Source: Candidatus Thorarchaeota archaeon
GTDB lineage: Archaea > Asgardarchaeota > Heimdallarchaeia > Hodarchaeales > Hodarchaeaceae
Reading direction: 5' to 3'
Length of the DNA stretch: 32,000 nucleotides
NCBI GenBank assembly: GCA_048882505.1
Contig: JBHLRO010000016.1
Location: 62,554 to 94,553, forward strand
In this document: one piece after another, positions 12,854 through 32,000 of the stretch
Layout: each line of letters opens with the position of its first letter
How positions within the stretch are numbered: position 1 is the stretch's first letter
Translations under genes and position numbers: made by a program
Notes under the pieces: model-generated
What the model was told of the DNA's origin: nothing
Database searches by the model: none
What the model saw: the letters and a program-made list of their open reading frames with translations, nothing else

Positions 12854-12958
12854 GGGCCCATGGCTTAGTCTAACGGGTTCGAGAACCCTTAGGAGAAGCC
12901 TGGTTAAAGCGCTCGGCTGATAACCGAGAGATCCCCGGTTCAAATCCGGGTGGGCCCA
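12854..12958 (+). tRNA. tRNA-Ile(GAT) with a 30-nt D-loop intron at 15/16 (12869-12898)
   Basis: Acceptor GGGCCCA/TGGGCCC, anticodon arm CTCGG-CT GAT AA-CCGAG, T-arm CCCGG-TTCAAAT-CCGGG. Removing the insert restores the D-loop AGCCTGGTTA. Relaxed BHB with inner hairpin CTAA/TTAG plus GGGTT/AACCC. Confidence 0.9.
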
Positions 12959-13103: not shown

Positions 13104-14465
13104 CTACATTACTCTAAAAGGGGAAGATTCTTCATTTCTCGAGATTTCTTTGAGAAATATCAATTCGGAATTGGCAGTACTCGGTCCATTTTGGTTTTCA
13201 GATTCGTTGAATTGTAATTTGAATAGTTGAAGGGTCAGTGAAGTGATCTGAGAGGAAGTTAATCTTGAAGATGAAAGTTGAGTTAATTGGGCGAAGATAC
13301 AAATGAGTTGCTGGAGCGACAATTGGCGTTTTAGCTCGGAAAGTAGGTAGCTCTGCTTAGATCCATCCCTTTCTTCGATAATAGTCTCTAGGATCGAAAG
13401 GAAATTGGGACTACGCACTAATTTCAGACAAAACATGGATCTACGATGACATTTCTTTATTCTTTCGTTTAAAGGAATTTCTGGAGATTTAGGAAGATTA
13501 CACATTTCGGCACATATTTGATTCATCTTTTCTGCTGAAACGAGGTTCATTTCGTTAAGTATAGGTCGGGATAATTCATTTTGATCATCTTCGGGTACTT
13601 GACGATGACCAAGGGATTCCTGTTCTAAGGAAACTACCCCGTCTACTGTTGAATCTACTTTATGAGGAGTAAAATTATGACCAAGTTCTGAAGATGCCAT
13701 CAATATTGTTCTAATATATTGGACACCTTTTTCAAAGCTGATTTTTGATCCTTCATATACCAAATATCTCAACCTGAGCTTAACCAGCTCTGAAGGACTC
13801 AATATTGATTTTGTGTTGTATAATGCCGGATTAAAAGCTATTCTGCCAAGATACTCAAAGAAAGAACTGGCAGGAAACTTTGCAAGATGATAGATCTGAG
13901 TATTGCCCTTGTCTCCTTGATTAGTCTTAGACGATTGTGAAGAATCCGTGGAGTAGACTAATACGGTACTTGGAGAGTAATGTGATTCCTTTTCGTTTAT
14001 TGACTCATATCGTGGTATTAAAAAAGAACCCCCCTCCTTAAGAAAATGTCTCCCGCCGATCTTACAGATTTTTCTTGATTTGAGATCTCTAACGAGATCG
14101 CGCTCCGATTCAGGGCTGATGTCGGGAAAAATGGTATCTAAAATCGCTGAGTTGCTATTAATTCGGTCTATTAGCTCCCCGTAAGAACTTGCATACAGCA
14201 TTAACCTGATGACCTTCTTGTCAGAGTTTATCTCGATGGTGAATATTTGGAGATGCTGTAATTGGCTTAACTCATTTAACTGAATTCCATCTAAGGAATA
14301 ACTCACATAAAAGGCCATCCAAAGATTGTGTTTAGGGATGAAAACAATCCCTCTTCCCCTTATGGAAAAATCAATGGAAAATGAACTTCTGATGAATATT
14401 TGGAGTATCTCATATAAGAGTAATCCAGAGAGGATCAACGCGGGGATATAATGGAGCGGATTCAT
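13104..14465 (-). CDS. Hypothetical protein with an N-terminal membrane anchor (453 aa)
   Basis: Long ORF; hydrophobic N-terminus YIPALILSGLLLYEILQIFI; Cys-rich C-terminal patch CAEMC...C...C. Confidence 0.75.
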   Translation of the reverse strand: MNPLHYIPALILSGLLLYEILQIFIRSSFSIDFSIRGRGIVFIPKHNLWMAFYVSYSLDGIQLNELSQLQHLQIFTIEINSDKKVIRLMLYASSYGELIDRINSNSAILDTIFPDISPESERDLVRDLKSRKICKIGGRHFLKEGGSFLIPRYESINEKESHYSPSTVLVYSTDSSQSSKTNQGDKGNTQIYHLAKFPASSFFEYLGRIAFNPALYNTKSILSPSELVKLRLRYLVYEGSKISFEKGVQYIRTILMASSELGHNFTPHKVDSTVDGVVSLEQESLGHRQVPEDDQNELSRPILNEMNLVSAEKMNQICAEMCNLPKSPEIPLNERIKKCHRRSMFCLKLVRSPNFLSILETIIEERDGSKQSYLLSELKRQLSLQQLICIFAQLTQLSSSRLTSSQITSLTLQLFKLQFNESENQNGPSTANSELIFLKEISRNEESSPFRVM

Positions 14466-14514
14466 GAGATTTTTTCTCCTCTTAAAACACTTCGTAAATC
14501 CATACGGAAAGACA

Positions 14515-14530
14515 AAGGTTTTAAAACCTT
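14515..14530. promoter_or_regulatory. Perfect 16-bp intergenic palindrome, candidate operator
   Basis: AAGGTTTT|AAAACCTT, ~50 nt upstream of the 453-aa gene start. Confidence 0.25.
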
Positions 14531-14607
14531 GATTTGTATTTTAAGCTGCCAGTTAGCCACCATTTGGAGAATTCCCGCATCGATACCATTACTGGATTTG
14601 AAATCAT

Positions 14608-17600
14608 TTAGGTCTGTAGAATCGACATTCGTCTTCTTTTGATAAAATTCATGAGGAAAAGCCCTCCTAGGATTAGTATAGTGATGATCGTCGGGGTGAG
14701 ATATTCTAAATCCGTTAGAAGTGAAGATGGGTTATAAACCAAAAGTTCCATCAGGGTGTTGGTAATATTAACAGTGTTTATATTCCCCGCCCAGTCCATA
14801 GCTTTCAGACTAACGTTTTTAGAGAGAAAACTAGTTACTGGGATACTGAATACGTGGTAATTCGTGGTTAAGTTATTGGAAACCATTCTTCTACCGTTAT
14901 CCATAACTGAGACGTTTCTAATCCCTGAAGCCCGCTCAGGTTCAAATACAAAGGTATTAATCCTAATAAATTCGTCTGAAGCTTCAATTGAATATTTCAA
15001 CACCGGCATATATGGGTCTGTAATAGTGAAAGATTGTTCTCTGCTCCTGACAATGAACGTAGAGGAATACTCTACTTCTAATCTTATGGATACTGTTGAA
15101 TTCCAATTTTGGGGAGGTAAATGGGCTTCCACAAGAGTAGATCCGTTTGAAAATGTTTTATAACTCGTATTGAAACAGTTTAGTGAGTAGTGGCCTAATG
15201 AATAAATTACGGAGTACGAAAAATCAAGCGGGGAATGGAACAACCAGCTTCCCTTAATGGTTTCATTGTAAAAATAATTTCCCTGAAACGATTCCAACAC
15301 ATTGACGTTTAGATCAGCTAAGTATCCTTCCATATAATAGTTAATTGGAAGGCCTCCAATGATGTTAAGTCGTGATATGGAAATTTGGGTACCTTTAATG
15401 TTGATGGAGGTGGTTGAGGTAATGTCTCGGCCTAAAGTATCAAGGAGAGAGAGATTTAGAGGGATAAATCCCAAAAAACTAAGATCTAGACTTATTGTAA
15501 AGTTATTTACAGTTATAACAGAATCTAAGCTGATTTCGACCCGGAATTTCTCAGAAAATTCCACTAGGGAAATATATGCAGTAGGACTAGGTAGTTCGAT
15601 TACCAGGATATCAGTTGAAGAAACATTTCCATCAAGATTCCAAGATAAAACGCCGCTTCTAGAGTTAACCCCTACTATATAGTAGTCTCTCAGAATGAAA
15701 GCTGTTTTCATTTTTAGACCATAGGATGGTAAAGGAGTATACCAGCTGGAATCATTTGTGGGATATTCAATGGCATAATAGACGAAGAAAGATCCGTTTG
15801 AACCAACAGGTGACCGAGACAGTTCATAAATGTCTGCACGGGTTCCATTGGTTGATAAAGTACCATTTAGTATTGTAAAAATGATGGTTTGGAACTTCAC
15901 GAGACTTTCTTCTAAAAACCCTCCTATTCCAACGTACAATCGGTCTTCGGTTATACCAAGGTTTGCTTTGAAATCGATATCTGCATATCCTGCGGAGTTT
16001 GTCTGTCTTTCGCATTCTACGGAATTATTAATCCAAATCTTCACAGTAAGCCCTTGCAATATCTGAAGAGTACCTCCTTCAGGAGGTTGAAGATATGAAT
16101 AAAGCCTGAATACTACAGAATCATTAATGTAAATTCCAGTATTGAGATTTTCAAAACTCCATACTATTGATGATGATAGAATTTCAAGATTGATTTGCTT
16201 CTTTGCGAAAAAATTGCTGGTATCTGACGCAAGAATAAAAACGCTTATGTTTCCTGGCGCCCACATTATATTAGTGATGTTTAAGACAAAATCCTTACGA
16301 GGGGTTTGTGAAAAAAGGAGATTAGTGTTTCCTTTTGTTAAAAGAACGAGAGAACTATTTGCTGTATATTTCACACTGCCCAAAAATAAACTCAAATTTA
16401 TGAATAAAGGTTCATATTGGTATATGGTCACATTTTGTTGGGTATGGAGTACAATCATTGCAAATTCATTTGATTCATGAATGATGATGTCTTGCTTATA
16501 GAAACCAAATTCCCAATTGCTGGTCCAATTAACTTCTAGACGTAATAGACCAATTGGAAATACTTCTGTTATAGGGACGTCCGGAAATGAAAAGGATCCA
16601 TTTATCATTGGAAGAGTGGATCGATTGTAAACGAAGGTATTGTTCAAAAGGTATAGATAGAGGGCACCTGCTAAAGGAAATATCAAATCCCCTTTTACAC
16701 GAAGTATATCATCTGTATTGAGATCCGTTGGGGCAATTATTTTGACAAGATAGTTAGGAGCAAAAGCCTCAAGTACTGTCGGATCTAAATACTTCCCTTC
16801 AACACGGTATTGTTTCCCAGTCAGATACATGTTCAATGATTTTGTAACATTGATACTGTACAATTGGGTGCTTGCGTTAAGAATGCGCGGATCAGTCCAA
16901 TCTGTGGGAAGAAAAATCAGAATTTTATTTTTTATCAAGTTTTCACTGATATCTGGCATGCACATTCTCAGAAAAATCTTAACATGAGTGGAATTCCAGT
17001 ATAAACCAGATGAAAAGGCAGGGCGGGTCTGGACTCGTGTTATTGTCACATTTAGATAGGTTTCCAAACTCTTATTCCAGGGTGAATTATCTTGGACAGA
17101 GAATGTAAAGTTGCCAGATAATGGAGAAATTGCGACCGATCCATTAGTAGAAAATACTTCTGTAGTATCAATAAAATAACTGAGGGAGCCATTTAAAGGT
17201 AGATTCTCTGTGTAATATTCTAAATTATCGATATCTAGGGTGAATTGAGGTGATACAAGGGTGAACAGGAAAAGTGAAAGCTTGACTGCTTTAAGTTCAG
17301 AGAATAAAGGGTGTTTGCTTTTGGAAAAACAGGTGTTAATCATCCATGAAATATTAATGGAAATATGTCGCCATGATGAAGGGAGCGACCCATTATATAA
17401 AATATAAAGAGAACTTGAAGCGTTTCTCAGAATAAGGGAGGGATCGGTTCCTATTGGTCTCGAAATGGTTTCATTAATTGGATCACCGGGAAGATTTCCC
17501 CCTTTTGATAAATAAAATGTGATTGAGGTACTATTAACGAATTCAAACTCCAAGCTCAAGGTAGGAGGAGAATCCTGAAGATTCTGACCAACGAAGGGCA

Positions 17601-18183
17601 TTCGATAATCAAAGGAGATAAAAGTTGGAAAATTAGATGGCGGTGGAACTGTAGACATGTTGAATTTCACATTCTGGAGCCCTGCACTACTCTGATTATT
17701 AACCGTGAAATTTGCACGAAATGCCGTACCATTAAGGGTAGGAATCGTCGAGGTGACAACAGGACCATACCCGTTTACCCAATCCTGACTTTGATCCTCA
17801 GCATTAGAAATAATTTTATATGTAGAATTACTGATCTCCGATTCAATAGAAACAGTGGTATTTGGAGGTGATTTAATCTGCCTTGTTTGGTTGGTATGCA
17901 AAGGGAACTGTGAAACCTGAAACATATCAAAAAGGATCGGATCAGCGTTACTCGCGCTTTGATTGCTGACTTGAAATACTGATGACGAAGAAGAAAGAGG
18001 GGAACTTTCGGAAGTGCGTGGCTTTTCTAGAAGAGGTATTGAGAGCTTCTCAAAATCATTACCATCTACACCCGTTTCTATGTCCATGTTAATAAAAATC
18101 GGGATAATTGAAAAAACAACTAATAATATAAGAGCGGTATTCCTTATGGAGTGAAAATGTGAGGTAAATGCCCAGATGCCCAT
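14608..18183 (-). CDS. Large cell-surface glycoprotein / adhesin-like protein (1191 aa)
   Basis: N-terminal signal/TM (ALILLVVFSIIPIFI), C-terminal TM with basic tail (TIITILILGGLFLMNFIKRRR), many N-x-S/T sequons, beta-rich composition. Confidence 0.8.
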   Translation of the reverse strand: MGIWAFTSHFHSIRNTALILLVVFSIIPIFINMDIETGVDGNDFEKLSIPLLEKPRTSESSPLSSSSSVFQVSNQSASNADPILFDMFQVSQFPLHTNQTRQIKSPPNTTVSIESEISNSTYKIISNAEDQSQDWVNGYGPVVTSTIPTLNGTAFRANFTVNNQSSAGLQNVKFNMSTVPPPSNFPTFISFDYRMPFVGQNLQDSPPTLSLEFEFVNSTSITFYLSKGGNLPGDPINETISRPIGTDPSLILRNASSSLYILYNGSLPSSWRHISINISWMINTCFSKSKHPLFSELKAVKLSLFLFTLVSPQFTLDIDNLEYYTENLPLNGSLSYFIDTTEVFSTNGSVAISPLSGNFTFSVQDNSPWNKSLETYLNVTITRVQTRPAFSSGLYWNSTHVKIFLRMCMPDISENLIKNKILIFLPTDWTDPRILNASTQLYSINVTKSLNMYLTGKQYRVEGKYLDPTVLEAFAPNYLVKIIAPTDLNTDDILRVKGDLIFPLAGALYLYLLNNTFVYNRSTLPMINGSFSFPDVPITEVFPIGLLRLEVNWTSNWEFGFYKQDIIIHESNEFAMIVLHTQQNVTIYQYEPLFINLSLFLGSVKYTANSSLVLLTKGNTNLLFSQTPRKDFVLNITNIMWAPGNISVFILASDTSNFFAKKQINLEILSSSIVWSFENLNTGIYINDSVVFRLYSYLQPPEGGTLQILQGLTVKIWINNSVECERQTNSAGYADIDFKANLGITEDRLYVGIGGFLEESLVKFQTIIFTILNGTLSTNGTRADIYELSRSPVGSNGSFFVYYAIEYPTNDSSWYTPLPSYGLKMKTAFILRDYYIVGVNSRSGVLSWNLDGNVSSTDILVIELPSPTAYISLVEFSEKFRVEISLDSVITVNNFTISLDLSFLGFIPLNLSLLDTLGRDITSTTSINIKGTQISISRLNIIGGLPINYYMEGYLADLNVNVLESFQGNYFYNETIKGSWLFHSPLDFSYSVIYSLGHYSLNCFNTSYKTFSNGSTLVEAHLPPQNWNSTVSIRLEVEYSSTFIVRSREQSFTITDPYMPVLKYSIEASDEFIRINTFVFEPERASGIRNVSVMDNGRRMVSNNLTTNYHVFSIPVTSFLSKNVSLKAMDWAGNINTVNITNTLMELLVYNPSSLLTDLEYLTPTIITILILGGLFLMNFIKRRRMSILQT

Positions 18184-18241
18184 CTTGGTATCCCATTTCG
18201 ACGGTTGATTCCTTCGCTGGCCTCTAAGTTTGTATCAAAGT

Positions 18242-18257
18242 GGTGTTAAATAACACC
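18242..18257. promoter_or_regulatory. Intergenic inverted repeat, candidate operator
   Basis: GGTGTTA-AA-TAACACC, ~60 nt upstream of the 1191-aa gene start. Confidence 0.25.
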
Positions 18258-18319
18258 CCAAAACAAAGACCTTGAAGATGTATATGGATACCCAGGATCG
18301 TCCGGATTCGTGTTAATTT

Positions 18320-19852
18320 CTACACTAGTAGGTAATTACTGAGAAAAAATGTTCGGACAAGAAAGAAGATAACAAGAAAAAGGAAAACATGAAAACAAGC
18401 GATGATTCTGCCCATTGAAATTCGAATCTTTGTATGTGAGGTATTTAGAAAAGATCTTCGGCCGGGGAGAACACTCATGACTAATGCAATGGTAAGAAAA
18501 AGAATGTCAAAACTAGGATCAAGAGTTGGATTACTTAAATCCATGAAAGAATAGCTTAATGATGTTGAAACATAAAGAAAGAATGGACTGGCCCCCCCGA
18601 TAATTGCAAGCGATATAATTGACAGTAATTGGATGATCCCGTTTTGAAGGTCAGCTGCTTTCCGTTTGGCTTCTCCTCTATTCAATATTTGACTTGTCCT
18701 GTTTAATTCCTCTGTTATAATCAATAATTTTTCTCCTGCTACATATGGATCAATCTTACTAAACTTTTGGGTCAGAGTAACAAGTTGAATCGCGCGTTCA
18801 GATAAGAATTCTCGTAGAAATCTGGACTTTTGATCACTCCCTTGGTTTCCTCTAAGTAGGAATTTATTGAAATTGTTTACCTCTTTATCTATCGATTTAG
18901 CGATATTCCCAGGTGGATAATAGCCACCCAGGTTTAATGCAGAATTAAGGCTTTTTTCAAAGCTATTCCCTTTCATCATATTTTCAGCAAGTATAAGGAG
19001 CATTTGTATGGATTCGGAATCATTGGATATGGCAATCCGATTTTTTTCAGAAAATAATATCAGATATCTGTTTGGACTAACAATAAATGAAACTAGAATT
19101 ATTCCAAAGATTATAAGTGCTCCCCAAAAAAAGTTCATCAATCCAGTGATTAGTAATAAACATAAGAGTACAGGTGGGCTCAATAATGCTAATCCTGAGG
19201 ATAAGGCCACCCAGGTATCGATTTTTTCTATTTCTTCTACCGCCTTTACCGTAATTTGGTTGAGAATGTGTTTTTTTGAAAAATCCGCCAAGTTCCTACC
19301 ACTTTCCCATATGGAAATTATGTTTGAAAATAAATGAAGAATATTACCGCGTAATCGTTTTGTTATCTCCTTTTTCAGATTTACTTCAAGATTATCGCCA
19401 AAATGACTCTGTAAAAGCGCCTCTTCAAATATCTGTGAAAATACTGAGTAATTACCATGAATAATAAACATGCTGGCCTCCTTCAAGGATTTTGATGTTT
19501 CTAAAATCATTAAAAGCTCATTGACTACAAAATAGCCCAAAGTTTCGATCATTGTACTGTGTTGTTTAAACTGGCTATATATAATGAAGTGTAGCAGGCG
19601 TAGGATGAAAACAGCAAGAGTAATTTCTAATAAAAGGAGTTCAATTGGCCGAGGATACAATATAAAGAACTGGAATGCAAGAATGACAGACAATGTGACA
19701 AAAAACAGTGTAATAATACCGTAAAAACTTGTTTTGTCCATTCTATATCTGGATCTAAAGTATTCCTCAAAGCTATAATCGTCAAAAAAGGTATAATCTC
19801 CAAGGATAACGTTACCAATCATTTCCAGTAGTTGAACTGATACCTTTACCAT
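18320..19852 (-). CDS. Multi-pass membrane protein, TadB/TadC-FlaJ (T2SS-F)-like platform
   Basis: TM pair, cytoplasmic helical domain (ELLMILETSKSLKEA), TM pair, second domain (ILAENMMKGNSFEKSL), TM trio. This is the duplicated T2SSF topology, and the gene is divergent from a VirB11/TadA ATPase. Confidence 0.6.
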   Translation of the reverse strand: MVKVSVQLLEMIGNVILGDYTFFDDYSFEEYFRSRYRMDKTSFYGIITLFFVTLSVILAFQFFILYPRPIELLLLEITLAVFILRLLHFIIYSQFKQHSTMIETLGYFVVNELLMILETSKSLKEASMFIIHGNYSVFSQIFEEALLQSHFGDNLEVNLKKEITKRLRGNILHLFSNIISIWESGRNLADFSKKHILNQITVKAVEEIEKIDTWVALSSGLALLSPPVLLCLLLITGLMNFFWGALIIFGIILVSFIVSPNRYLILFSEKNRIAISNDSESIQMLLILAENMMKGNSFEKSLNSALNLGGYYPPGNIAKSIDKEVNNFNKFLLRGNQGSDQKSRFLREFLSERAIQLVTLTQKFSKIDPYVAGEKLLIITEELNRTSQILNRGEAKRKAADLQNGIIQLLSIISLAIIGGASPFFLYVSTSLSYSFMDLSNPTLDPSFDILFLTIALVMSVLPGRRSFLNTSHTKIRISMGRIIACFHVFLFLVIFFLVRTFFLSNYLLV

Positions 19853-20186
19853 CTTCTCTCATTCCTCGGCAAATCTGGCTGAGACAAACAAATGGTAGGA
19901 AAGAACCCAATTTGGAAATTGCTGCTCTATACTTTTGCGTTGGAGTACCATCGGAAATATCGATACAGATACGGGTTCTAGTGATTTATATTGCCTAGTT
20001 AAACCGCAGTTCTCATTGGAAGTCCGAACCTAAACATGAAAGTGGCATTCATTTGATCAATTACCCTTATTTAATATAAAATCCCCAATTCTCTCTAGGG
20101 AGGTTTCCTGAGTTCTCAATTAGACGGGTGTAGTCAGAACTCAATTCTATATCATATCCTCTAAATCTAGGGTTTTTTTATTCTTT

Positions 20187-20525
20187 TTGCAGGAAATCTT
20201 GTTGGTTAGTGAATTGGCTTTCTTACAAACACAGAGAACCATAATTCAAGTAAAATGCATAGCTTGCGGAAAAAAGGAAACTATCGTGATAACTGAAGAA
20301 GAATTGGAATATGCAAAAAAGGAACATGCCCTTATTACAAAAGCCGTTGCCCACACTCAAGCTGGGCATGTTTTGACACTGTATATAGATGGTCAGGGGA
20401 TAGTAAGAAGGAAATATTGTTTCGATATTGCAGAAAGTAAGCGCAATCTTTTCACTAATTCGTTGTCAAAGGATTTGGACTCCATTTTCGAGCAGATGCT
20501 TAAAGATGCCATGAAAGCTCAATAG
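20187..20525 (+). CDS. Small putative Zn-binding protein (CxxC...H...H-x-L-x-L-Y-I-D...R)
   Basis: CIAC...AH...GHVLTLYIDGQGIVR resembles a domain I recall as recurrent in Asgard proteomes; directly upstream of the secretion ATPase. Confidence 0.6.
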   Translation: MQEILLVSELAFLQTQRTIIQVKCIACGKKETIVITEEELEYAKKEHALITKAVAHTQAGHVLTLYIDGQGIVRRKYCFDIAESKRNLFTNSLSKDLDSIFEQMLKDAMKAQ

Positions 20526-20567
20526 CGAAATAGTAGATATCCAAGAACGACCATTTAACCGAGATTA

Positions 20568-21938
20568 TTGGTGAAGTCATTGGTTCCATCGATTCACTTG
20601 GCCCCCCATAATATTATTACCCAAATGGAACTTTTAGAGTCCTACAAATTTCGAAGCTACGTGGTAGAAGTTAATCAGGAGAAATCGACGAAGACTCTTG
20701 AACCCCTGTACCAAGTAAAATATGATGAGACAACCTACAAGAGTTTGAAAGACTTCTATTTATATGAAAAACAAATTAAGATGGCCTTAGAAGAGTTTGT
20801 ATCGCAAAACAAAGAATTTTGCACATTTAATCAACTTTTCAAATACCTAAACGAAATTATCCCTAACAAGGTTTACATTCCGAGTGGATTAATGGTTCCG
20901 ATCTTTTTTCGGGTACTTGGGCTTGAAAAGATCGGACCCCTGTTAATGGATGAGAATATTGACGAAATCTATATCGATTCGAGTCATAAAGCTATTTATA
21001 TTGACCATAATCGACATGGGCGGTGTAACACCTTCATTAAGCTCTCCAAAAAGGAAATTGATACTTTTGTAAGCCGAATTGCCCTTGAAAACGATTTTTC
21101 ATTAAGCCAAAGTAATCCTACAATGAAAGCGGATTTTACATCGCCCTTATTTCATACGAGGGTTACCGTTGATATCCCCCCACTTATTATTGAAGATGTA
21201 CACATTGATATTAGGAAATTTCACGCAGAACAATTACGTTTACCAGATCTAGTAGAGATTGGGAGTATTACGGGCGCACAGGCCGATTTTTTGAGGTATC
21301 TAATCCAAAACCAAACTTCACTCTCAATAATTGGACCACCCAATTCTGGGAAGACCACGCTACAAAACGCCTTAATTGAATATATTCCATCCCATTTACG
21401 ACTTCTTTCAATAGAAGATGTCCTTGAGAGTACAAATTTAAGACACGGTAATGTTGTGCGATTTCGACTTGGGTACGACCCTCATGAGGGCCATTTAATC
21501 TCTAAGTCAATGGAAGTTCAAAAGATTTTACATAGAAGTCCTGATTTTATAAATCTAGGTGAATTATCCTTAAAAGATCATTTTACAGCCTTTCTTAATG
21601 TGTTGTCAGTCGGTATACCATCAATTCAAACTATTCATGGGAAAAATCCCAATTTTCTTCTCCAACGACTAAAAGACATCTATCAAGTTCCTCTCGAAAT
21701 CCTCCAAACCTCAATCCCCCATGTATTTATCGAACTCGACGTTTTTTGGAAAAGGAATAAGAAAAACCGAATGCTTGTTAAAATTGCTGAATTAAATGAA
21801 CAAGGAGGTATTTCATCGATTTCTAATGAAGATATCAATCACTTTCTTACAAATGATCGCGAGAGTTCAAATATTTTCACGATTAGATACCTCCTGAACC
21901 GTAATCGTGCTGAAAACTGGCATAAAACAAATACCTAA
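20568..21938 (+). CDS. Type II/IV secretion ATPase (VirB11/CpaF-TadA/FlaI family)
   Basis: LLMDENIDEIYI, Walker A GPPNSGKTT, Asp box SIEDVLE, Walker B SPDFINLGE, His box QTIHG. Confidence 0.88.
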   Translation: MVKSLVPSIHLAPHNIITQMELLESYKFRSYVVEVNQEKSTKTLEPLYQVKYDETTYKSLKDFYLYEKQIKMALEEFVSQNKEFCTFNQLFKYLNEIIPNKVYIPSGLMVPIFFRVLGLEKIGPLLMDENIDEIYIDSSHKAIYIDHNRHGRCNTFIKLSKKEIDTFVSRIALENDFSLSQSNPTMKADFTSPLFHTRVTVDIPPLIIEDVHIDIRKFHAEQLRLPDLVEIGSITGAQADFLRYLIQNQTSLSIIGPPNSGKTTLQNALIEYIPSHLRLLSIEDVLESTNLRHGNVVRFRLGYDPHEGHLISKSMEVQKILHRSPDFINLGELSLKDHFTAFLNVLSVGIPSIQTIHGKNPNFLLQRLKDIYQVPLEILQTSIPHVFIELDVFWKRNKKNRMLVKIAELNEQGGISSISNEDINHFLTNDRESSNIFTIRYLLNRNRAENWHKTNT

Positions 21939-22154
21939 ATCACGACTCGTTCTTTGACGTATAATGATTGAATATTCTTCAATTCGGGTTTTTATAAGGT
22001 AAGCAGCATTAGAGCTATTGAACCAAAACAATGGTTTCATGGGATAGACTTGCAGCTTCTTTCGTTCCTTTGTTCTATCCCAGGCAGTTCCTGGGGTGTT
22101 ACGTTTTTTTCGTCTTTTATATTTGAAACGGCTCCAGATTCAAATAACAACTTT

Positions 22155-22565
22155 ATGATTCCTCTTTTCTCCGATTTATTAAGCGTAGCTATAATTATAT
22201 TGAACATTTCACTGTTATACGGTGGTATAGTATATTTATTGGAATTTGACGGTCGAAATGGTAAAATAATGGTAATTAGGTCAGTTGTGGTGTTTCTATT
22301 GTTGATTTCTCTTTTTTCCCCCGCGTATGATCCTGTTACATTCAATTTCCGCTATTTGGACAACATTTTTCCCTTAATATCATACATACTTGCATATTTG
22401 CTGTTTATATTTGCAGCATCCGCATTAATTCTGTTCATTGGCAATTTAGGATTCTATCTTCTGTCCTCACACCCCAGAAAAGGCGAGGGCCTGAAACGAT
22501 GTGGATTTTGTTTACTTTGTGTGCTCTTGCCGCTAGGGTTTCAATTTCCGAAATTCCCTTTGTGA
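22155..22565 (+). CDS. 4-TM membrane protein made of two VirB2/CedA1-like helix-hairpin units (ORF open from 22050; ATG 22155 preferred)
   Basis: Units ...LYGGIVYLLEFDGRNGKIMVIRSVVVFLLL and ...GNLGFYLLSSHPRKGEGLKRCGFCLLCVLL. Confidence 0.6.
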   Translation: MIPLFSDLLSVAIIILNISLLYGGIVYLLEFDGRNGKIMVIRSVVVFLLLISLFSPAYDPVTFNFRYLDNIFPLISYILAYLLFIFAASALILFIGNLGFYLLSSHPRKGEGLKRCGFCLLCVLLPLGFQFPKFPL

Positions 22566-22578
22566 ATGATGTGATCTG

Positions 22579-22806
22579 ATGTTCGACACGGTTCTTTGGC
22601 AGTTTATAACGACCCTATATCATCTTATATTATCTGTTCCATTCGGTGCCTTCCTCATTGTGATTGGTGCAATCATTTATGTTCCAACTGGGCACCGCTT
22701 AGGAAGATATTTTATTATCGTTGGACTTTTAATTTTCACCATCCAAAGCGGTATCATCTCAAGCGATCCGCTATGGAAGGAAGGCATCGTCTTACGATTT
22801 TTTTGA
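22579..22806 (+). CDS. Small 2-TM pilin-like protein (VirB2/TrbC/CedA1-like topology)
   Basis: 75 aa; FLIVIGAIIYVPTGHRLGRYFIIVGLLIF; starts 13 nt after the previous gene. Confidence 0.55.
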   Translation: MFDTVLWQFITTLYHLILSVPFGAFLIVIGAIIYVPTGHRLGRYFIIVGLLIFTIQSGIISSDPLWKEGIVLRFF

Positions 22807-22928: not shown

Positions 22929-25646
22929 ATGTGGAAATTGGCACTGGGAGAAAACATAATGTGGACACCAGAACTTAAGAAAATAAGCCAAATACAATTT
23001 GGAATCCTTTCACCTGATGAAATTCGAAAGATGGCTGTCACCAAAATTATCACAGCCGACACATATAACGAGGATGGGACTCCCATTGAGGGAGGTCTCA
23101 TAGACCGCCGTTTGGGGACAATTGAACCAGGTCAACGCTGCAAAACTTGTGGAAACCAGGTGGGAGATTGTCCGGGGCATTTCGGGATGATTGAGCTGGC
23201 TAGACCAGTTGTTCACGTTGGATATGCCAAAGCCATCATCTATAAGTTGTTACGATCCACCTGTAGAGCCTGCTCTCGTATTCTTTTAGATACTCATGCA
23301 ATGAAGAAATACCAAAAACTACTCGATAAGGCTGCCGAAGAAGAAGATCTGAAATCGTCCCAAGAAATCTACAAGGAAGTAGTTAAGGAAGCGCGTAAGA
23401 AAGGAGAATGCCCTCATTGCGAGAATCCACTTTTTAAGATCAAATACGAAAAACCCACGAGTTTTTATGAAGAAACACCAGAGGGATCAGTTCGTATCAC
23501 CCCCTCTGAAATCCAAAAGCGGTTTGAAGGGATTCCTACCCAGGATCTGGTGCTCCTTGGAATTGACCCGAACTATTCGCGTCCTGAATGGATGATCCTA
23601 ACCGTTTTACCTGTTCCTCCTGTTTCTGTTCGGGCCTCTATTACGTTAGAATCAGGCGTACGAAGTGAAGATGATTTAACTCACAAACTCGTTGATATAA
23701 TCCGCATTAACCAAAGATTACGGGAAAATGTTGAAGCTGGAGCACCACAACTCATTGTGGAGGACTTATGGGAGTTATTACAATACCACGTTACTACTTT
23801 CATGGACAATGAGGTTGCAGGAATCCCTCCAGCACGACATCGTTCTGGACGGGCATTACGTACACTTACTCAACGATTACGAGGGAAAGAAGGACGGTTC
23901 CGAGGAAACCTCTCTGGAAAACGTGTTGATTTTTCAGCACGTACAGTGGTTTCCCCTGATCCTAATATCTCTATCAACGAAGTAGGTGTTCCTGAGCAAA
24001 TAGCAAAAATTCTAACTGTTCCTGAACGCGTCACAGAGTGGAATATAGAAGAAATGAAAGAACTGGTGATGAATGGGCCAAATCCAGACAAAGAAGATAA
24101 AACAGGCGTGTCGAAAACCGGTTCAAACTATATAATACGCCCCGATGGCAAGCGAATCGACCTTCGTTTTGTCGGTGATTTGAATAACACCGCAGAGATG
24201 ATTGATCAAGGTTTCATTGTAGAGCGTCATCTTAGGGATGGGGATATGGTTCTCTTCAATCGTCAACCATCGCTCCATCGTATGTCTATTATGGCCCACG
24301 AAGTTCGTGTGATGCCCTACAAGACCTTTAGATTACATTTATGTGTCTGTACTCCCTACAATGCGGATTTTGACGGTGACGAGATGAATCTGCACGTCCC
24401 CCAGAGCGAGGAAGCGCGGGCTGAAACCCGAGTTTTGATGCGCGTACAGGAACAGATTCTATCTCCTCGTTATGGTGGCCCTATTATTGGGGCATTGCAT
24501 GATTATGTATCTGCCGCGTTCTTGTTAACTCGAAAGAAAACATTAATCTCGAAAGAAGATGTTTGGCAATTGCTCCTCGCTGGAAACTACGAGGGGGAGC
24601 TCCCACCACCAGCAATCACTCATCCAACAGAATTGTGGACTGGCAAACAGGTTTTTAGCCTCTTGTTGCCACCTGACGTCAATGTAACCACCAAATCCCG
24701 TACATGCCGAAAAAACGATGTGTGCAAGGGGGAACTGTGTGAAAATGATAGTTACGTTTACATCCGTGGAGGACAGCTACTTTCTGGAGTTATAGACAGA
24801 CGTGCAATTGGCGCTGATGAATCTGAAAGTGTTCTACATGTTGTAGTCAAAGATCATGGCAGCGATAGGGCCAGAGATTTCTTGGATTCTTTAACTCAAA
24901 TGCTTTTAGAATTCCTCTCGCACGAAGGATTCAGCTTGGGATATTCAAATGTTAACATGCCCGAAGAGGGGAAAAAACGGATCAAGACCTTGATTGAAAA
25001 TAATGAAAAACGGGCAAGCGAAATGATAGAATCTTATAGAAGGGGAGAACTGGAACCGCTACCTGGAAAATCCCCAGAAGAGACCCTTGAAATGAGGATT
25101 ATGAGTGTGTTGGCAACAGCAAGAGATAGTGCAGGCAACGTTGCAAACGATTATATGGGCATTTCAAATTCAGCGGTCGTTATGGCGTCAACAGGTGCAA
25201 AGGGAACAACTCTCAACATTGCTCAGATGGCTGCGTGTGTTGGGCAACAATCTATTCGCGGAGAGCGAATTTTGCGCGGATATCGTCAGCGTTCTCTGCC
25301 ACATTTTCAAAAAAATGATATAGGTCCAGTTGCCAGAGGTTTTGTAAGATCTAATTATCGAATAGGATTATCACCAACTGAATTCTTTTTCCATGCTCAG
25401 GGTGGCCGGGAAGGTCTTGTAGATACTGCGGTACGCACCTCTACAAGTGGGTATCTTCAACGAAGGTTGGTAAATGCACTCCAAGATCTTCATGTGAATT
25501 ACGATATCATTGTTCGCACAACAGAGGGAGATGTGGTTCAATTACGCTATGGAGAGGATGGAGTTGACCCGATGAAGTCGTACCATGGCAGACCAGTCGA
25601 TATCGAAGCCATTATAGAGGAAGTCATTTCCTCAGAAGAGAATTAA
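22929..25646 (+). CDS. rpoA1: DNA-directed RNA polymerase subunit A' (Rpo1N); alternative start ATG 22959
   Basis: CKTC...CPGHFG Zn site, GKRVDFSARTV, catalytic YNADFDGDEMN, TSTSGYLQRRL, YGEDG. Confidence 0.97.
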   Translation: MWKLALGENIMWTPELKKISQIQFGILSPDEIRKMAVTKIITADTYNEDGTPIEGGLIDRRLGTIEPGQRCKTCGNQVGDCPGHFGMIELARPVVHVGYAKAIIYKLLRSTCRACSRILLDTHAMKKYQKLLDKAAEEEDLKSSQEIYKEVVKEARKKGECPHCENPLFKIKYEKPTSFYEETPEGSVRITPSEIQKRFEGIPTQDLVLLGIDPNYSRPEWMILTVLPVPPVSVRASITLESGVRSEDDLTHKLVDIIRINQRLRENVEAGAPQLIVEDLWELLQYHVTTFMDNEVAGIPPARHRSGRALRTLTQRLRGKEGRFRGNLSGKRVDFSARTVVSPDPNISINEVGVPEQIAKILTVPERVTEWNIEEMKELVMNGPNPDKEDKTGVSKTGSNYIIRPDGKRIDLRFVGDLNNTAEMIDQGFIVERHLRDGDMVLFNRQPSLHRMSIMAHEVRVMPYKTFRLHLCVCTPYNADFDGDEMNLHVPQSEEARAETRVLMRVQEQILSPRYGGPIIGALHDYVSAAFLLTRKKTLISKEDVWQLLLAGNYEGELPPPAITHPTELWTGKQVFSLLLPPDVNVTTKSRTCRKNDVCKGELCENDSYVYIRGGQLLSGVIDRRAIGADESESVLHVVVKDHGSDRARDFLDSLTQMLLEFLSHEGFSLGYSNVNMPEEGKKRIKTLIENNEKRASEMIESYRRGELEPLPGKSPEETLEMRIMSVLATARDSAGNVANDYMGISNSAVVMASTGAKGTTLNIAQMAACVGQQSIRGERILRGYRQRSLPHFQKNDIGPVARGFVRSNYRIGLSPTEFFFHAQGGREGLVDTAVRTSTSGYLQRRLVNALQDLHVNYDIIVRTTEGDVVQLRYGEDGVDPMKSYHGRPVDIEAIIEEVISSEEN

Positions 25647-28336: not shown

Positions 28337-30490
28337 CTACCTTTCTAGAGGATTAAACCATAATTCTCGATATTTCTCGCGCAATCGTGCGTAAAATGGG
28401 GTGTTCTTGAGAGAATTGAGAACATGGGATCGTTGAACCTCAAAGGTAAAATTATTGGTTTGGAGTAATGTTACCTTACCGTTAACTGAAAGAATACAAC
28501 GTTGTCCAGTTGGCTCGATTTTTAGAAGGCTTCGAAGTTGTTCATAATCGGTTTTGCTCAAACCTAGAAGGTTAGAGATGGCGTAAGAATCATAATTGGT
28601 AAAAAAAATGACCAAAATACCTGTATTGGTTAGGATTGCCTGATCTATAATAGGGTCGGTACCCACGAATATCATCGATACATCATAAGCGCGCAGGGTC
28701 CATGGCCCACGACCAATCATGGAAGTTGGAGGTAGAGATCGATGATTATTAGTAGGAATGAGTTTCTGGGCCTCATCTAGGACAATCACGTTTTTTGGGA
28801 GGGAATCTTCTTTGTAAGGTAACCGAGAAGTTCTGATAAAATAATAAAGGAATTGAAAAACCACTTCAAGAAAGATTTGCCTACCTAATTGATCCTCCAT
28901 TGCCTCAAAGCCTGAAAGATCAATGATAGAATTCTTTTCCAATAGATCCCCGAGCTCAAAGGTTGTTTCACGAACTGTGAAACAACGTCCTGTGTTACCA
29001 AAGAAGAGTTTTTCAACACGGTTGATTATACCTGCCGATGTGTTCTCCAGATACGCCCCTTGAATACCTAGATCCTTAGGTGATTGAACCAATGAAACAA
29101 AGTGGTTGAAATCTCCACGATGTTTTACTGTTTCAATCACAGCCTGGTGCAGTACTCGACGCATCTGTGGCGAAACATTGTCACTATTTGCAAAAATATG
29201 TTCTAGAATGGAAACAACGAAAAGGATATGATCTTCCATAGGAATAAGGTCATCTCCTCTATTATCTTTCGGGATCTGAAAGATGTTTATTCCCCAGGGA
29301 AAAGTAGTAGATCCTGGTTTTATATAAATGAAATCCTCACAGAAAGATTTAACAGGCTGAATATATTCTCCTTTTGGGTCAAAAATGAGAAATTTGACCT
29401 TCTGACGGTAAAATTCCTTTATCACCCCATATATGAAGCGGCTTTTTCCCTCTCCGGTCATACCAAAAACTGCCATGTGTCTATTGAGATCGTTTCCTCC
29501 AAGTAATAAGGGGGTATTTGCCGTTCGGCCGCTAGTAATTGGCACACCGAGGTTGATAACAAACTTGGAGCCAGGACTGTTTAGTCTTGCTGATAAATTA
29601 TATTCGATCTTGTGTGGAACAAGGGAATAACCATTGTGTGAGTATTGCCGATGAGGCAGGGAAATAAAACCCATTAAGGAATAACCATCCAAAATAATAG
29701 GGGCAGCTAACTTCCGTTTTGAGATCATCCTCTTTAATCTTGTAAAGCGATTGAACCCCTTGGGGTAAATAGTGGTTCGAAATCCTTTAGATTCGAATAA
29801 AACGGACAGACGGGCTAATTTAGATTGGAGAGTTTGGCGATCTGTTTCGACAATTAGTACCCGTGGAGAAAATTCGTAACATCCCACTTCAGCCATAATA
29901 TTTCCTTTAATAGGGTTGATTCGTCTTTCAACCTTCCCCCCGTGTAAATCAAACCGAAATCGAGGAAGTGGTAGGTTAGACTCCCTAGGTTGGAATTCCT
30001 TAGGAACGTCGATAGAGTGAAAAACTAGCTGCGCAATAGCAAACTGCGGATTATCAGTCAAAACCTCTAAAAGGTCATCTGAAAAGGATCCCGCGGCTAC
30101 TGCGCCGTTATATTGGTGCTTTGGTGTAGCTACTATTCCTCCTGCATGAAAACTGCTAGGAAGACCCTCAATAGTCATTCTGCTTTTGAGCATTTCTAGC
30201 ACGATATGGATTGAGGGAGTATGAATTTTGAATAGATCCGGATGTAGCCCTAATGCAGACGCAAACTGCTTTATTACAGCTAAACCTCTTTCTTGATTAT
30301 TTTTCCCTAACCTACCTGCCCGTACAGGATACATGTCAATTTTAACCGTCTTCGGGGTAAAAACTGAATATTCTAACGAAAAAATCGAATCACTGTGCTG
30401 GAAAACAGAAATACTGGTTTTGTCATAATCCAACGGAACATACTCAAAGCTAAAGGCGGCTAATGACCTGGACATAGGACCATACATCAC
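28337..30490 (-). CDS. HerA/VirB4/FtsK-superfamily ATPase (DUF87-type) with ~300-aa unassigned N-terminus
   Basis: LNRHMAVFGMTGEGKS (Walker A), FDPKGEY, VIVLDEAQKL (Walker B). Confidence 0.82.
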   Translation of the reverse strand: MMYGPMSRSLAAFSFEYVPLDYDKTSISVFQHSDSIFSLEYSVFTPKTVKIDMYPVRAGRLGKNNQERGLAVIKQFASALGLHPDLFKIHTPSIHIVLEMLKSRMTIEGLPSSFHAGGIVATPKHQYNGAVAAGSFSDDLLEVLTDNPQFAIAQLVFHSIDVPKEFQPRESNLPLPRFRFDLHGGKVERRINPIKGNIMAEVGCYEFSPRVLIVETDRQTLQSKLARLSVLFESKGFRTTIYPKGFNRFTRLKRMISKRKLAAPIILDGYSLMGFISLPHRQYSHNGYSLVPHKIEYNLSARLNSPGSKFVINLGVPITSGRTANTPLLLGGNDLNRHMAVFGMTGEGKSRFIYGVIKEFYRQKVKFLIFDPKGEYIQPVKSFCEDFIYIKPGSTTFPWGINIFQIPKDNRGDDLIPMEDHILFVVSILEHIFANSDNVSPQMRRVLHQAVIETVKHRGDFNHFVSLVQSPKDLGIQGAYLENTSAGIINRVEKLFFGNTGRCFTVRETTFELGDLLEKNSIIDLSGFEAMEDQLGRQIFLEVVFQFLYYFIRTSRLPYKEDSLPKNVIVLDEAQKLIPTNNHRSLPPTSMIGRGPWTLRAYDVSMIFVGTDPIIDQAILTNTGILVIFFTNYDSYAISNLLGLSKTDYEQLRSLLKIEPTGQRCILSVNGKVTLLQTNNFTFEVQRSHVLNSLKNTPFYARLREKYRELWFNPLER

Positions 30491-30819: not shown

Positions 30820-32000
<1,181 letters not shown>

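Follow-up and report, generated by a model that had tools for sequence, protein, structure and literature searches.

The window analysed here is a stretch of 32 000 nucleotides from Candidatus Thorarchaeota archaeon (assembly GCA_048882505.1, contig JBHLRO010000016.1, positions 62 554 to 94 553; G000:C16:62554-94553 in our numbering, where C16 and C34 are contigs of the window's genome G000). Close homologues are labelled Heimdallarchaeota, Hodarchaeota or Hodarchaeales archaeon, and 'Candidatus Hodarchaeum mangrovi' is among the relatives, which identifies the source as an Asgard archaeon of the Hodarchaeales type. The window carries a divergent cluster of seven genes between tRNA-Ile(GAT) and rpoA1. 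This cluster probably codes for the motor and the envelope components of a Tad/Flp-like machine of the type IV filament (T4F) family that is strongly diverged and specific to the Heimdall-class Asgard archaea. Sequence comparisons indicate that the clade of its ATPase and platform is class-wide, and is accompanied by a surface protein of 950–1190 amino acids (aa), predicted to be N-glycosylated, and by a short Flp-like prepilin. The machine is a T4F-family variant with lineage-specific accessories, one of which has a scaffold fold of the type found in type IV and type VII secretion systems (T4SS and T7SS). The original prediction, made from the letters of the window, had proposed a chimeric Tad/T4SS system. 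Its Tad-type ATPase/platform core stands, and a fold like the N-terminal domain of VirB4 was found in one of the proteins, p453; its VirB2 pilins, its VirB11 ATPase and its premise of a machine without pilins are not supported, and a nearby HerA-type ATPase is not part of the unit. The hybrid T4SS reading is only partly supported, possible but unproven.

The seven open reading frames (ORFs) are all found in the ORF listing at the positions first proposed. The left arm, on the reverse strand, is composed of the genes for p453 (13104–14465, 453 aa), p1191 (14608–18183, 1191 aa) and p510 (18320–19852, 510 aa). The right arm, on the forward strand, comprises p112 (20187–20525, 112 aa), the assembly ATPase (20568–21938, 456 aa), p171 (22050–22565, 171 aa) and p75 (22579–22806, 75 aa), and is flanked on the right by rpoA1, which starts at 22929. 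The 334 bp between the arms (19853–20186) contain no ORF of at least 60 aa and no pilin-like short ORF in the ORF listing; given the divergent arrangement, they presumably hold the promoters of both arms. A scan for sigma-70 promoters and terminators gave no enrichment, its models being bacterial and of no meaning in an archaeon.

The cluster is more than a chance association, because about 12 related genomes show the seven genes between rpS9 and rpoA1 in unchanged order and orientation, and 19 of the 21 genomes of the window's genus have them. The same count of 19 holds for p510, p171 and p75 taken singly, and the two genomes that lack the cluster genes are scaffolded assemblies in which gaps of 100 N fall precisely on the rpoA1 border. 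Five core genes are kept beside a different right flank in the relative L018, and the cluster is rearranged in the relative G007. A Pfam scan found no archaellin, FlaH or mobility genes among the cluster genes, and alignments of relatives revealed no conserved [KR][GA] class III cleavage motif in any of the seven proteins; PADLOC gave no defence-system match for them. The picture of a unit conserved in the core genome, free of mobility genes and, within its own seven genes, of class III signal peptides, archaellin and FlaH, is thereby confirmed. That the two arms are merely unrelated neighbours, an orphan secretion ATPase operon next to surface and membrane genes, has hardly any likelihood in our view. 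Their transcription is divergent and nothing biochemical ties p453 or p1191 to the ATPase, but in at least four families the ATPase, the platform and the large glycoprotein have remained together even where genes were rearranged, and the platform, the obligate partner of such ATPases, sits on the left arm.

Two features at the borders of the locus may be mentioned here. The tRNA-Ile(GAT) gene on the left was called by ARAGORN as 76 nt at 12883–12958; the Rfam model aligns over its positions 9–63 only (12897–12950, 33.8 bits), which is consistent with the unusual intron or D-loop insertion suggested earlier. The right flank of L018 (L018:338-4039) is, instead of rpoA1, a eukaryote-like ubiquitin module encoding a ubiquitin-like protein, ThiF/E1, UQ_con/E2 and a JAB deubiquitinase.

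Assembly ATPase, platform and surface glycoprotein

The 456-aa ATPase matches the Pfam family T2SSE over the cut-off (E 2.4e-17). In a sequence search of the PDB its closest relatives are afGspE (2oap; 9e-27, 97 bits), FlaI (7e-19, 71 bits) and CpaF (2e-15), and solved VirB11 proteins score 28–30 bits, with E values no better than 2e-6. All NCBIfam scores are far under the cut-offs: the top match, TIGR02788 ('VirB11'), reaches 103 bits against 250, the FlaI model 75 against 550 and the BasE model 54 against 1000. The protein has a Walker A motif G-P-P-N-S-G-K-T-T, an Asp box E-D-V-L-E and the conserved Walker B Glu; two positions differ throughout its clade, which has other residues in place of the Arg behind the Walker B G-E and of the His that opens the His box. 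In a class-wide search, members of the diverged clade scored at least 380 bits and the canonical type IV pilus (T4P) ATPases 105–135 bits, the two groups being well separated. Judged by these relationships, the ATPase is a member of the T2SSE superfamily and of its archaeal GspE/FlaI/TadA branch, in a diverged clade of its own. It had initially been described as a VirB11/TadA ATPase. The part that holds is the Tad-type pilus ATPase; VirB11 was rejected, as the protein is nearer to afGspE, FlaI and CpaF, shares the long N-terminal region seen in archaeal GspE/FlaI and has a T2SSF platform as its partner.

This platform, p510, is less easily recognized. It has no direct match in Pfam, NCBIfam or the PDB sequences, a PDB sequence-profile search gave noise only, and a profile search of 1.84 billion representatives returned 66 matches only. 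The link to known platforms is transitive: Pfam detects T2SSF in 18 of 41 distant profile matches (best E 3e-18), and P0026, a clear member of the p510 family (E 3e-72), covers T2SSF positions 2–118 of 125 at E 2e-4. The six top Foldseek matches in the PDB, obtained with a low-confidence model, are cytoplasmic domains of the GspF/EpsF type (OutF/EpsF; probability up to 0.96, TM-score 0.62, E 0.5), with TcpE and PilC domains further down the list. In sister families, the counterpart of p510 consists of two separate ORFs immediately 3' of the ATPase gene, which recalls the TadB/TadC division. Because of the transitive T2SSF link, the OutF/EpsF fold match and the split form after the ATPase gene, p510 is best described, from profiles and a weak but concordant fold, as a fused two-domain and very diverged T2SSF platform of the TadB/TadC/FlaJ type. 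The T2SSF/TadC-like platform of the original prediction is borne out by this indirect route. According to a census of archaeal T4F systems, Asgard components are scattered and hard to assign (PMC13705601); a platform as diverged as p510 would probably escape the models of such a census.

The third conserved component, p1191, contains 47 N-x-S/T sequons, or 3.95 per 100 aa, compared with 0.2–0.8 in the neighbouring proteins. Hydrophobic segments lie near its N- and C-termini (residues 11–39 and 1159–1183). Its relatives conserve the C-terminal anchor and an R/K-rich tail ending S-I-L, and their N-termini show no conserved class III motif. The sequons and both anchors support the earlier description of a surface glycoprotein: p1191 would be a large surface protein, predicted to be N-glycosylated, with an N-terminal signal/anchor helix and a C-terminal transmembrane (TM) anchor. 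By BLASTP it is colinear with the surface proteins of the g5 (948 aa, E 1.8e-7) and g7 (970 aa, E 0.002) loci, homologues of which are also found at the g8 and g4 loci. Since homologues sit at all four of these loci, p1191 is a partner that the machine has throughout the class.

Of the partners outside the core, the large glycoprotein is the only one that different families keep with the ATPase and platform. This would suit a reading in which no filament is made: the ATPase and platform would insert, display or remodel p1191 and other surface proteins, and the Flp-like peptide would act as a short pseudopilus or piston. The bindosome assembly system (Bas) of Sulfolobus uses a T4F core to organize surface proteins, and both the atypical His box and Walker B region of the ATPase and the presence of BasE among its weak NCBIfam matches point the same way. 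We nevertheless consider this reading quite unlikely. Without a conserved class III signal and with a C-terminal TM anchor, p1191 is not a pilin-like substrate, the BasE score is about one-twentieth of its cut-off, and the extreme conservation of the mature prepilin, described below, fits a polymerizing subunit.

The short prepilin and the proposed machine

A candidate filament subunit was found outside the seven genes. Sister loci contain an ORF of 60–80 aa with a basic leader, [KR][GA], then S-P-(I/L/M)-(I/L/V)-E-E and one hydrophobic helix. Its gene is directly 3' of the platform gene in genus g7, directly 5' of the TFB-ATPase genes in genus g5, and within 6.5 kb of genes of the diverged clade in g8 and f6. 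The window's genome encodes such a prepilin at G000:C34:23515-23748 (E 7e-14), with [KR][GA] followed by S-P-L-V-E-E and a single hydrophobic helix. About 12 genomes of the genus have it on one contig with the platform gene, 9–14 kb away, past the rpoA1-rpS12 block. In G009, for example, the order is pilin, KH, RIO1, Rrp4-like, methyltransferase, rpS12, NusA, L30e, rpoA2 and rpoA1, then p75, p171, the ATPase and p112, and, on the opposite strand, p510, p1191 and p453. In the window's assembly the prepilin is on C34 rather than C16 because C16 breaks inside an archaeal 16S rRNA gene (window 30822–32000, reverse strand, cut off by the contig end).

The prepilin leaders vary freely, while the mature 47–53 residues, starting right after the G/A, are almost invariant. 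This is the pattern that would be expected for a cleaved prepilin with Glu at +5. The term Flp-like refers here to the architecture only. Among the genomes G001–G040, the prepilin and the diverged ATPase are both present in 33 and both missing in five, so that they go together in 38 of 40. All five genomes that lack them (G025, G026, G030, G031 and G035, from three genera) keep the canonical ATPase/platform pair, and the two remaining 'pilin only' genomes have N-gaps at rpoA1. The original prediction had assumed a machine without class III pilins, and had named beforehand, as an observation that would speak against it, the co-occurrence of such pilins elsewhere with the ATPase/TadC pair. This co-occurrence is what we observed, and the 'no pilin' premise is not supported, because a putative class III prepilin co-occurs with the ATPase/platform clade and, in sister families, adjoins it.

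Processing could be provided by an A24 prepilin peptidase encoded elsewhere in the genome, for which there is one PF01478 match (G000:C18:13165-13440), with 26.8 bits just over the cut-off of 26.5. The same genome has a canonical T4P locus, L013 (G000:C15:36000-54000), which encodes a 502-aa ATPase, TadB-like and TadC-like proteins from genes of their own, and five or more proteins whose N-termini are of the class III type. A canonical T2SSE + T2SSF pair is present in 40 of the 41 class genomes searched.

On the basis of these elements, a mechanism can be proposed. The ATPase hexamer would dock on the platform. The A24 peptidase would cleave the prepilin between [KR][GA] and S-P, giving a mature subunit of about 47–53 residues with Glu at +5. 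The machine would then pull mature subunits from the membrane and polymerize them into a thin surface filament for adhesion or cell–cell contact, with the p1191 glycoprotein as its envelope partner (anchor, sheath or adhesin). To this core, the window's genus would have added four accessory genes, those for p112, p171, p75 and p453.

Several points weigh against this diverged Tad/Flp-like machine. The ATPase is without two residues conserved in most of its relatives, so that its activity is not assured. The AlphaFold2 model of p510 is poor, with a predicted local distance difference test (pLDDT) score of 51 overall and 65–83 over residues 40–190, and hhalign comparisons of the p510 family with the genome's own TadB/TadC, as single sequences or as alignments of 19–30 relatives, were not significant. 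The prepilin matches no Pfam entry, the Flp/class III models included, and no sequence in the PDB, including those of solved pilins. Its link to the machine consists of adjacency in other families and co-occurrence, and the canonical T4P locus of the same genome could use it instead. Finally, the filament itself is a prediction from the genes.

The prepilin gene has a neighbour of its own. A conserved operon diverges from it (L087:7863-12495 on G000:C34; also L118, L098, L105 and L143), encoding a Ras-family small GTPase, a single-domain KaiC-like ATPase, a 155-aa protein, a FIST-domain protein and a 492-aa protein. The KaiC-like protein scores 33 bits with the ArlH model, against a cut-off of 215. 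This operon may be a regulatory module for the filament.

Accessory proteins and the question of an exchange conduit

The accessory protein p453 consists of a TM helix, a domain like the VirB4 N-terminal domain and EccE (residues ~28–267), a disordered linker and a C-terminal helical domain with the conserved cysteines C318, C322, C339, C346 and C389. The N-terminal TM helix, single in the window's protein and double in relatives, confirms the membrane anchor that had been predicted; there are two sequons only. The AlphaFold2 model has a pLDDT of 70, rising to 85–92 over residues 30–260. In VIA-align comparisons, residues 28–267 superpose on the N-terminal domain of TrwK/VirB4 (TrwK residues 16–404) with Z 9.9–10.4 over 219–239 residues, and on EccE3 with Z 7.3–9.1; the next unrelated matches have Z of about 6. 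Matches in the AlphaFold database are EccE and the TraC N-terminal family, and those in the ESM Atlas are mostly VirB4/TrbE/CagE and CD1110-type clusters. The fold match is concordant in four libraries, although Foldseek against the PDB alone gave nothing at E <0.04; the Atlas's own model of p453 is poor, and the matches obtained with it are uninformative. Sequence identity is 7–9%, there is no match in Pfam or NCBIfam, and with this query p453 was matched only in the window's genus. The structural model thus suggests a membrane-anchored cytoplasmic protein with a VirB4-N-terminal-domain/EccE fold. A T4SS-like element, such as the original prediction proposed, does exist at the level of the fold, in a gene where it had not been suspected. 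Speculatively, p453 could serve as a scaffold close to the membrane and bind the small membrane proteins, in the way that VirB3 is held by the VirB4 N-terminal domain.

The gene for p112 ends 42 nt before the start of the ATPase gene. Its product has six invariant residues, C24, C27, H47, H56, H61 and C78, and a conserved motif Y-I-D-G-x-G-x-V-R-R-K-Y-C-F, and has no relative in Pfam, NCBIfam or the PDB. It is probably a small cytoplasmic metal-binding protein; the invariant Cys and His residues agree with the zinc-binding protein described earlier, the metal binding being putative. The place that p112 holds in the window's genus is taken in sister families by a TFIIB/TFB-like paralogue that has a zinc ribbon at its N-terminus and is encoded beside the diverged ATPase-platform genes (L083:11426-12640, L084:11859-12899, L134:16700-17764, L135:12012-13079 and L136:17012-17998). 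Profile comparison showed no relation of p112 or p453 to this TFIIB-like protein.

The two remaining proteins of the right arm have the four (p171) and two (p75) TM helices previously counted. The helices of p171 form two helix–basic loop–helix hairpins, and alignment and hydropathy show both loops to be K/R-rich and so presumably cytoplasmic. There is no relative of p171 in the PDB (E up to 10), Pfam, NCBIfam or the Atlas, and the full-length protein is found in the window's genus only. Family f4 has stand-alone ORFs of about 96 aa that match the first hairpin (e.g. G033:C6:62204-62395 and G037:C69:84520-84717); these ORFs lie apart from the machine and occur in genomes without the diverged ATPase as well. 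p75 is a single two-helix hairpin with a K/R-rich loop and the conserved motif G-x-I-x-Y-x-P-T-G-x-R-x-G-K. Its gene overlaps or abuts that of p171 in relatives and was found nowhere outside the genus among the 61 class genomes searched. It has no PDB match at E up to 10, none in Pfam or NCBIfam, and a best Atlas score of 0.85 against a mark of 0.9. Profile comparison of p75 with p171 (hhalign) was not significant, and the idea of a hairpin unit present three times, in p75 and in each half of p171, is a topological remark only.

These small proteins had been taken for pilins of the VirB2/CedA1 type. The likeness is one of helix–loop–helix topology, with no match to the solved chains at E up to 10 or to Pfam and NCBIfam families and no significant profile similarity between p75 and p171, and the assignment finds no support beyond this likeness. 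VirB2-type families have no mutual sequence similarity (PMC9905601), so that the missing matches do not exclude p75 and p171 from membership; CedA1 and TedC are a case in point, being VirB2-like pilins without mutual sequence similarity, of which CedA1 is unprocessed (PMC9905601).

The fold of p453 and the hairpins of p75 and p171 are also what would recommend a true hybrid exchange organelle, an updated form of the original prediction. According to this reading, the T4F motor and an Flp filament join cells, and p453, p171, p75 and a nearby ATPase of the HerA/VirB4 superfamily form a Ced/Ted-like conduit for DNA or protein; the arrangement would resemble the Ups and Ced systems of Sulfolobales brought together in a single locus. 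We judge it unlikely. The p453 domain does reach a Z of about 10 with VirB4, and VirB4/TrbE/CD1110 clusters dominate its Atlas matches, but p453 is devoid of an ATPase domain, and a search for longer fused forms, in itself weak evidence, found none. The helix–basic loop–helix topology of p75 and of both p171 halves is shared with VirB2/CedA1, and the missing signal peptide is no objection, CedA1 being an unprocessed pilin (PMC9905601); against this, the two proteins match no solved VirB2, TraA, CedA1 or TedC and no family model, and are not significantly alike. In Sulfolobales, CedB and CedD have TM helices joined to partial VirB4 N-terminal domains and work with Ups pili (PMC11868833), which lends the hybrid some plausibility, yet no channel protein of VirB6/CedA size was recognized.

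The remaining argument concerns the HerA-type ATPase. A 717-aa protein of the HerA/FtsK superfamily (DUF87) is encoded in the window between rpS12 and the 16S gene (28337–30490, reverse strand), 5.5 kb from p75. It occupies this position in the window's strain and its closest relatives only, is missing there in G009 and L016, and has no sequence relation to p453, whose resemblance to its N-terminal part was considered and rejected. Most genomes of the genus have one or two HerA-type copies elsewhere, beside a partner gene for 340–430 aa. The protein shows weak matches to CedD, VirB4 and TraD models; its CedD score is 60 bits against a cut-off of 600, its VirB4 score is likewise far under the cut-off, and another HerA paralogue of the same genome scores higher in both cases. 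In G022, its homologue abuts the Flp-like prepilin gene and is itself followed by a 61-aa ORF with two TM helices. This ORF looked p75-like by eye, but it scores 7.6 bits, within the noise of the genome, and no p75-like ORF follows the HerA-type gene in 12 genomes of the genus. Given its lack of synteny with the cluster and the better CedD match of the other paralogue, we take the HerA-type ATPase to be a generic one outside the conserved unit.

Biological meaning and comparison with known systems

The Hodarchaeales are among the closest known archaeal relatives of eukaryotes, and the contact of their surfaces with partner cells is a central element in models of eukaryote origin. The analysis defines a class-wide core-genome machine composed of an ATPase, a platform, a short pilin and a giant glycoprotein, and shows in the accessory protein p453 a fold that is elsewhere a feature of type IV and type VII secretion. 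Cultured Hodarchaeales display unexplained knob-tipped filaments on protrusions at the interface with syntrophic partners, and unexplained surface filaments 15–25 nm thick, thicker than pili (bioRxiv 10.1101/2025.02.26.640444). A bolder proposal, which we regard as a long shot, is that the locus, the short prepilin and p1191 make up a contact organelle of Hodarchaeales, in which the Flp filament is coupled via the VirB4-N scaffold and the hairpin proteins to an exchange conduit. If true, such an organelle could underlie the knob-tipped filaments on the protrusions (bioRxiv 10.1101/2025.02.26.640444). The mature peptide of about 47–53 residues, the 1191-aa glycoprotein and the VirB4-N-domain-like protein are the targets to look for in cultured strains.

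Several known systems share features with the cluster. The p453 domain superposes on the N-terminal domain of VirB4 (TrwK of R388) and on EccE of type VII secretion and, as in EccE and in VirB3–VirB4 fusions, follows N-terminal TM helices. Unlike VirB4, p453 has no ATPase domain; no VirB6, VirB8 or VirB10 was recognized, and the locus around the domain is of the T4F rather than the T4SS kind. Of the hallmarks of a T4SS, the VirB4 N-terminal domain is thus found at the level of fold, and no VirB4/CedB/TedB ATPase is found among the seven genes. The sole candidates for a VirB6/CedA-type channel are p171, which has four TM helices and no matches, and p510, which is a T2SSF platform instead. With the Ced/Ted systems, the cluster has in common small two-TM proteins beside a polytopic membrane protein, and VirB4-N-domain-like modules on TM helices, as in p453; functional coupling to a type IV pilus (Ups) is a further feature of those systems. 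It differs from them in that p75 and p171 have no detected similarity to Ced or Ted proteins and that the unit has no CedB/VirB4-type ATPase.

The archaeal T4F cores (FlaI/ArlI-FlaJ, AapE-AapF, UpsE-UpsF, afGspE) share with the cluster the logic of an ATPase paired with a platform and the dependence on a class III peptidase, and afGspE (2oap) and FlaI are the best solved relatives of its ATPase. In contrast to these cores, it has no archaellins, no ArlF/G/H/X and no Aap or Ups pilins. It is not an archaellum, having no archaellin or Arl accessory genes and a low score with the FlaI model. Nor does it belong to the Bas systems: the BasE score is low, there are no binding-protein genes and p1191 lacks a conserved class III motif.

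The comparison with Tad/Flp pili shows both differences and likenesses. The platform is not recognized by Pfam and is fused in the window's genus, the prepilin matches no Flp model, and the ATPase is without the initial His of the His box and the Arg that follows the Walker B G-E. Genes for TadZ, TadE/F/G and a secretin are missing. Additional components are the p1191 glycoprotein, the Cys/His protein, the two hairpin membrane proteins and the VirB4-N-domain-like protein, and the rpoA1-rpS12 block stands between the prepilin gene and the genes of the motor. The likenesses concern the core of the machine: as in bacterial Tad/Flp pili and the related archaeal Epd-type pili, a T2SSE ATPase lies beside one or more T2SSF platforms, split as TadB/TadC in the sister families; the A24 peptidase is encoded elsewhere in the genome, and the prepilin is very short, with a basic leader, predicted cleavage after G/A, a Glu at +5 and one hydrophobic helix.

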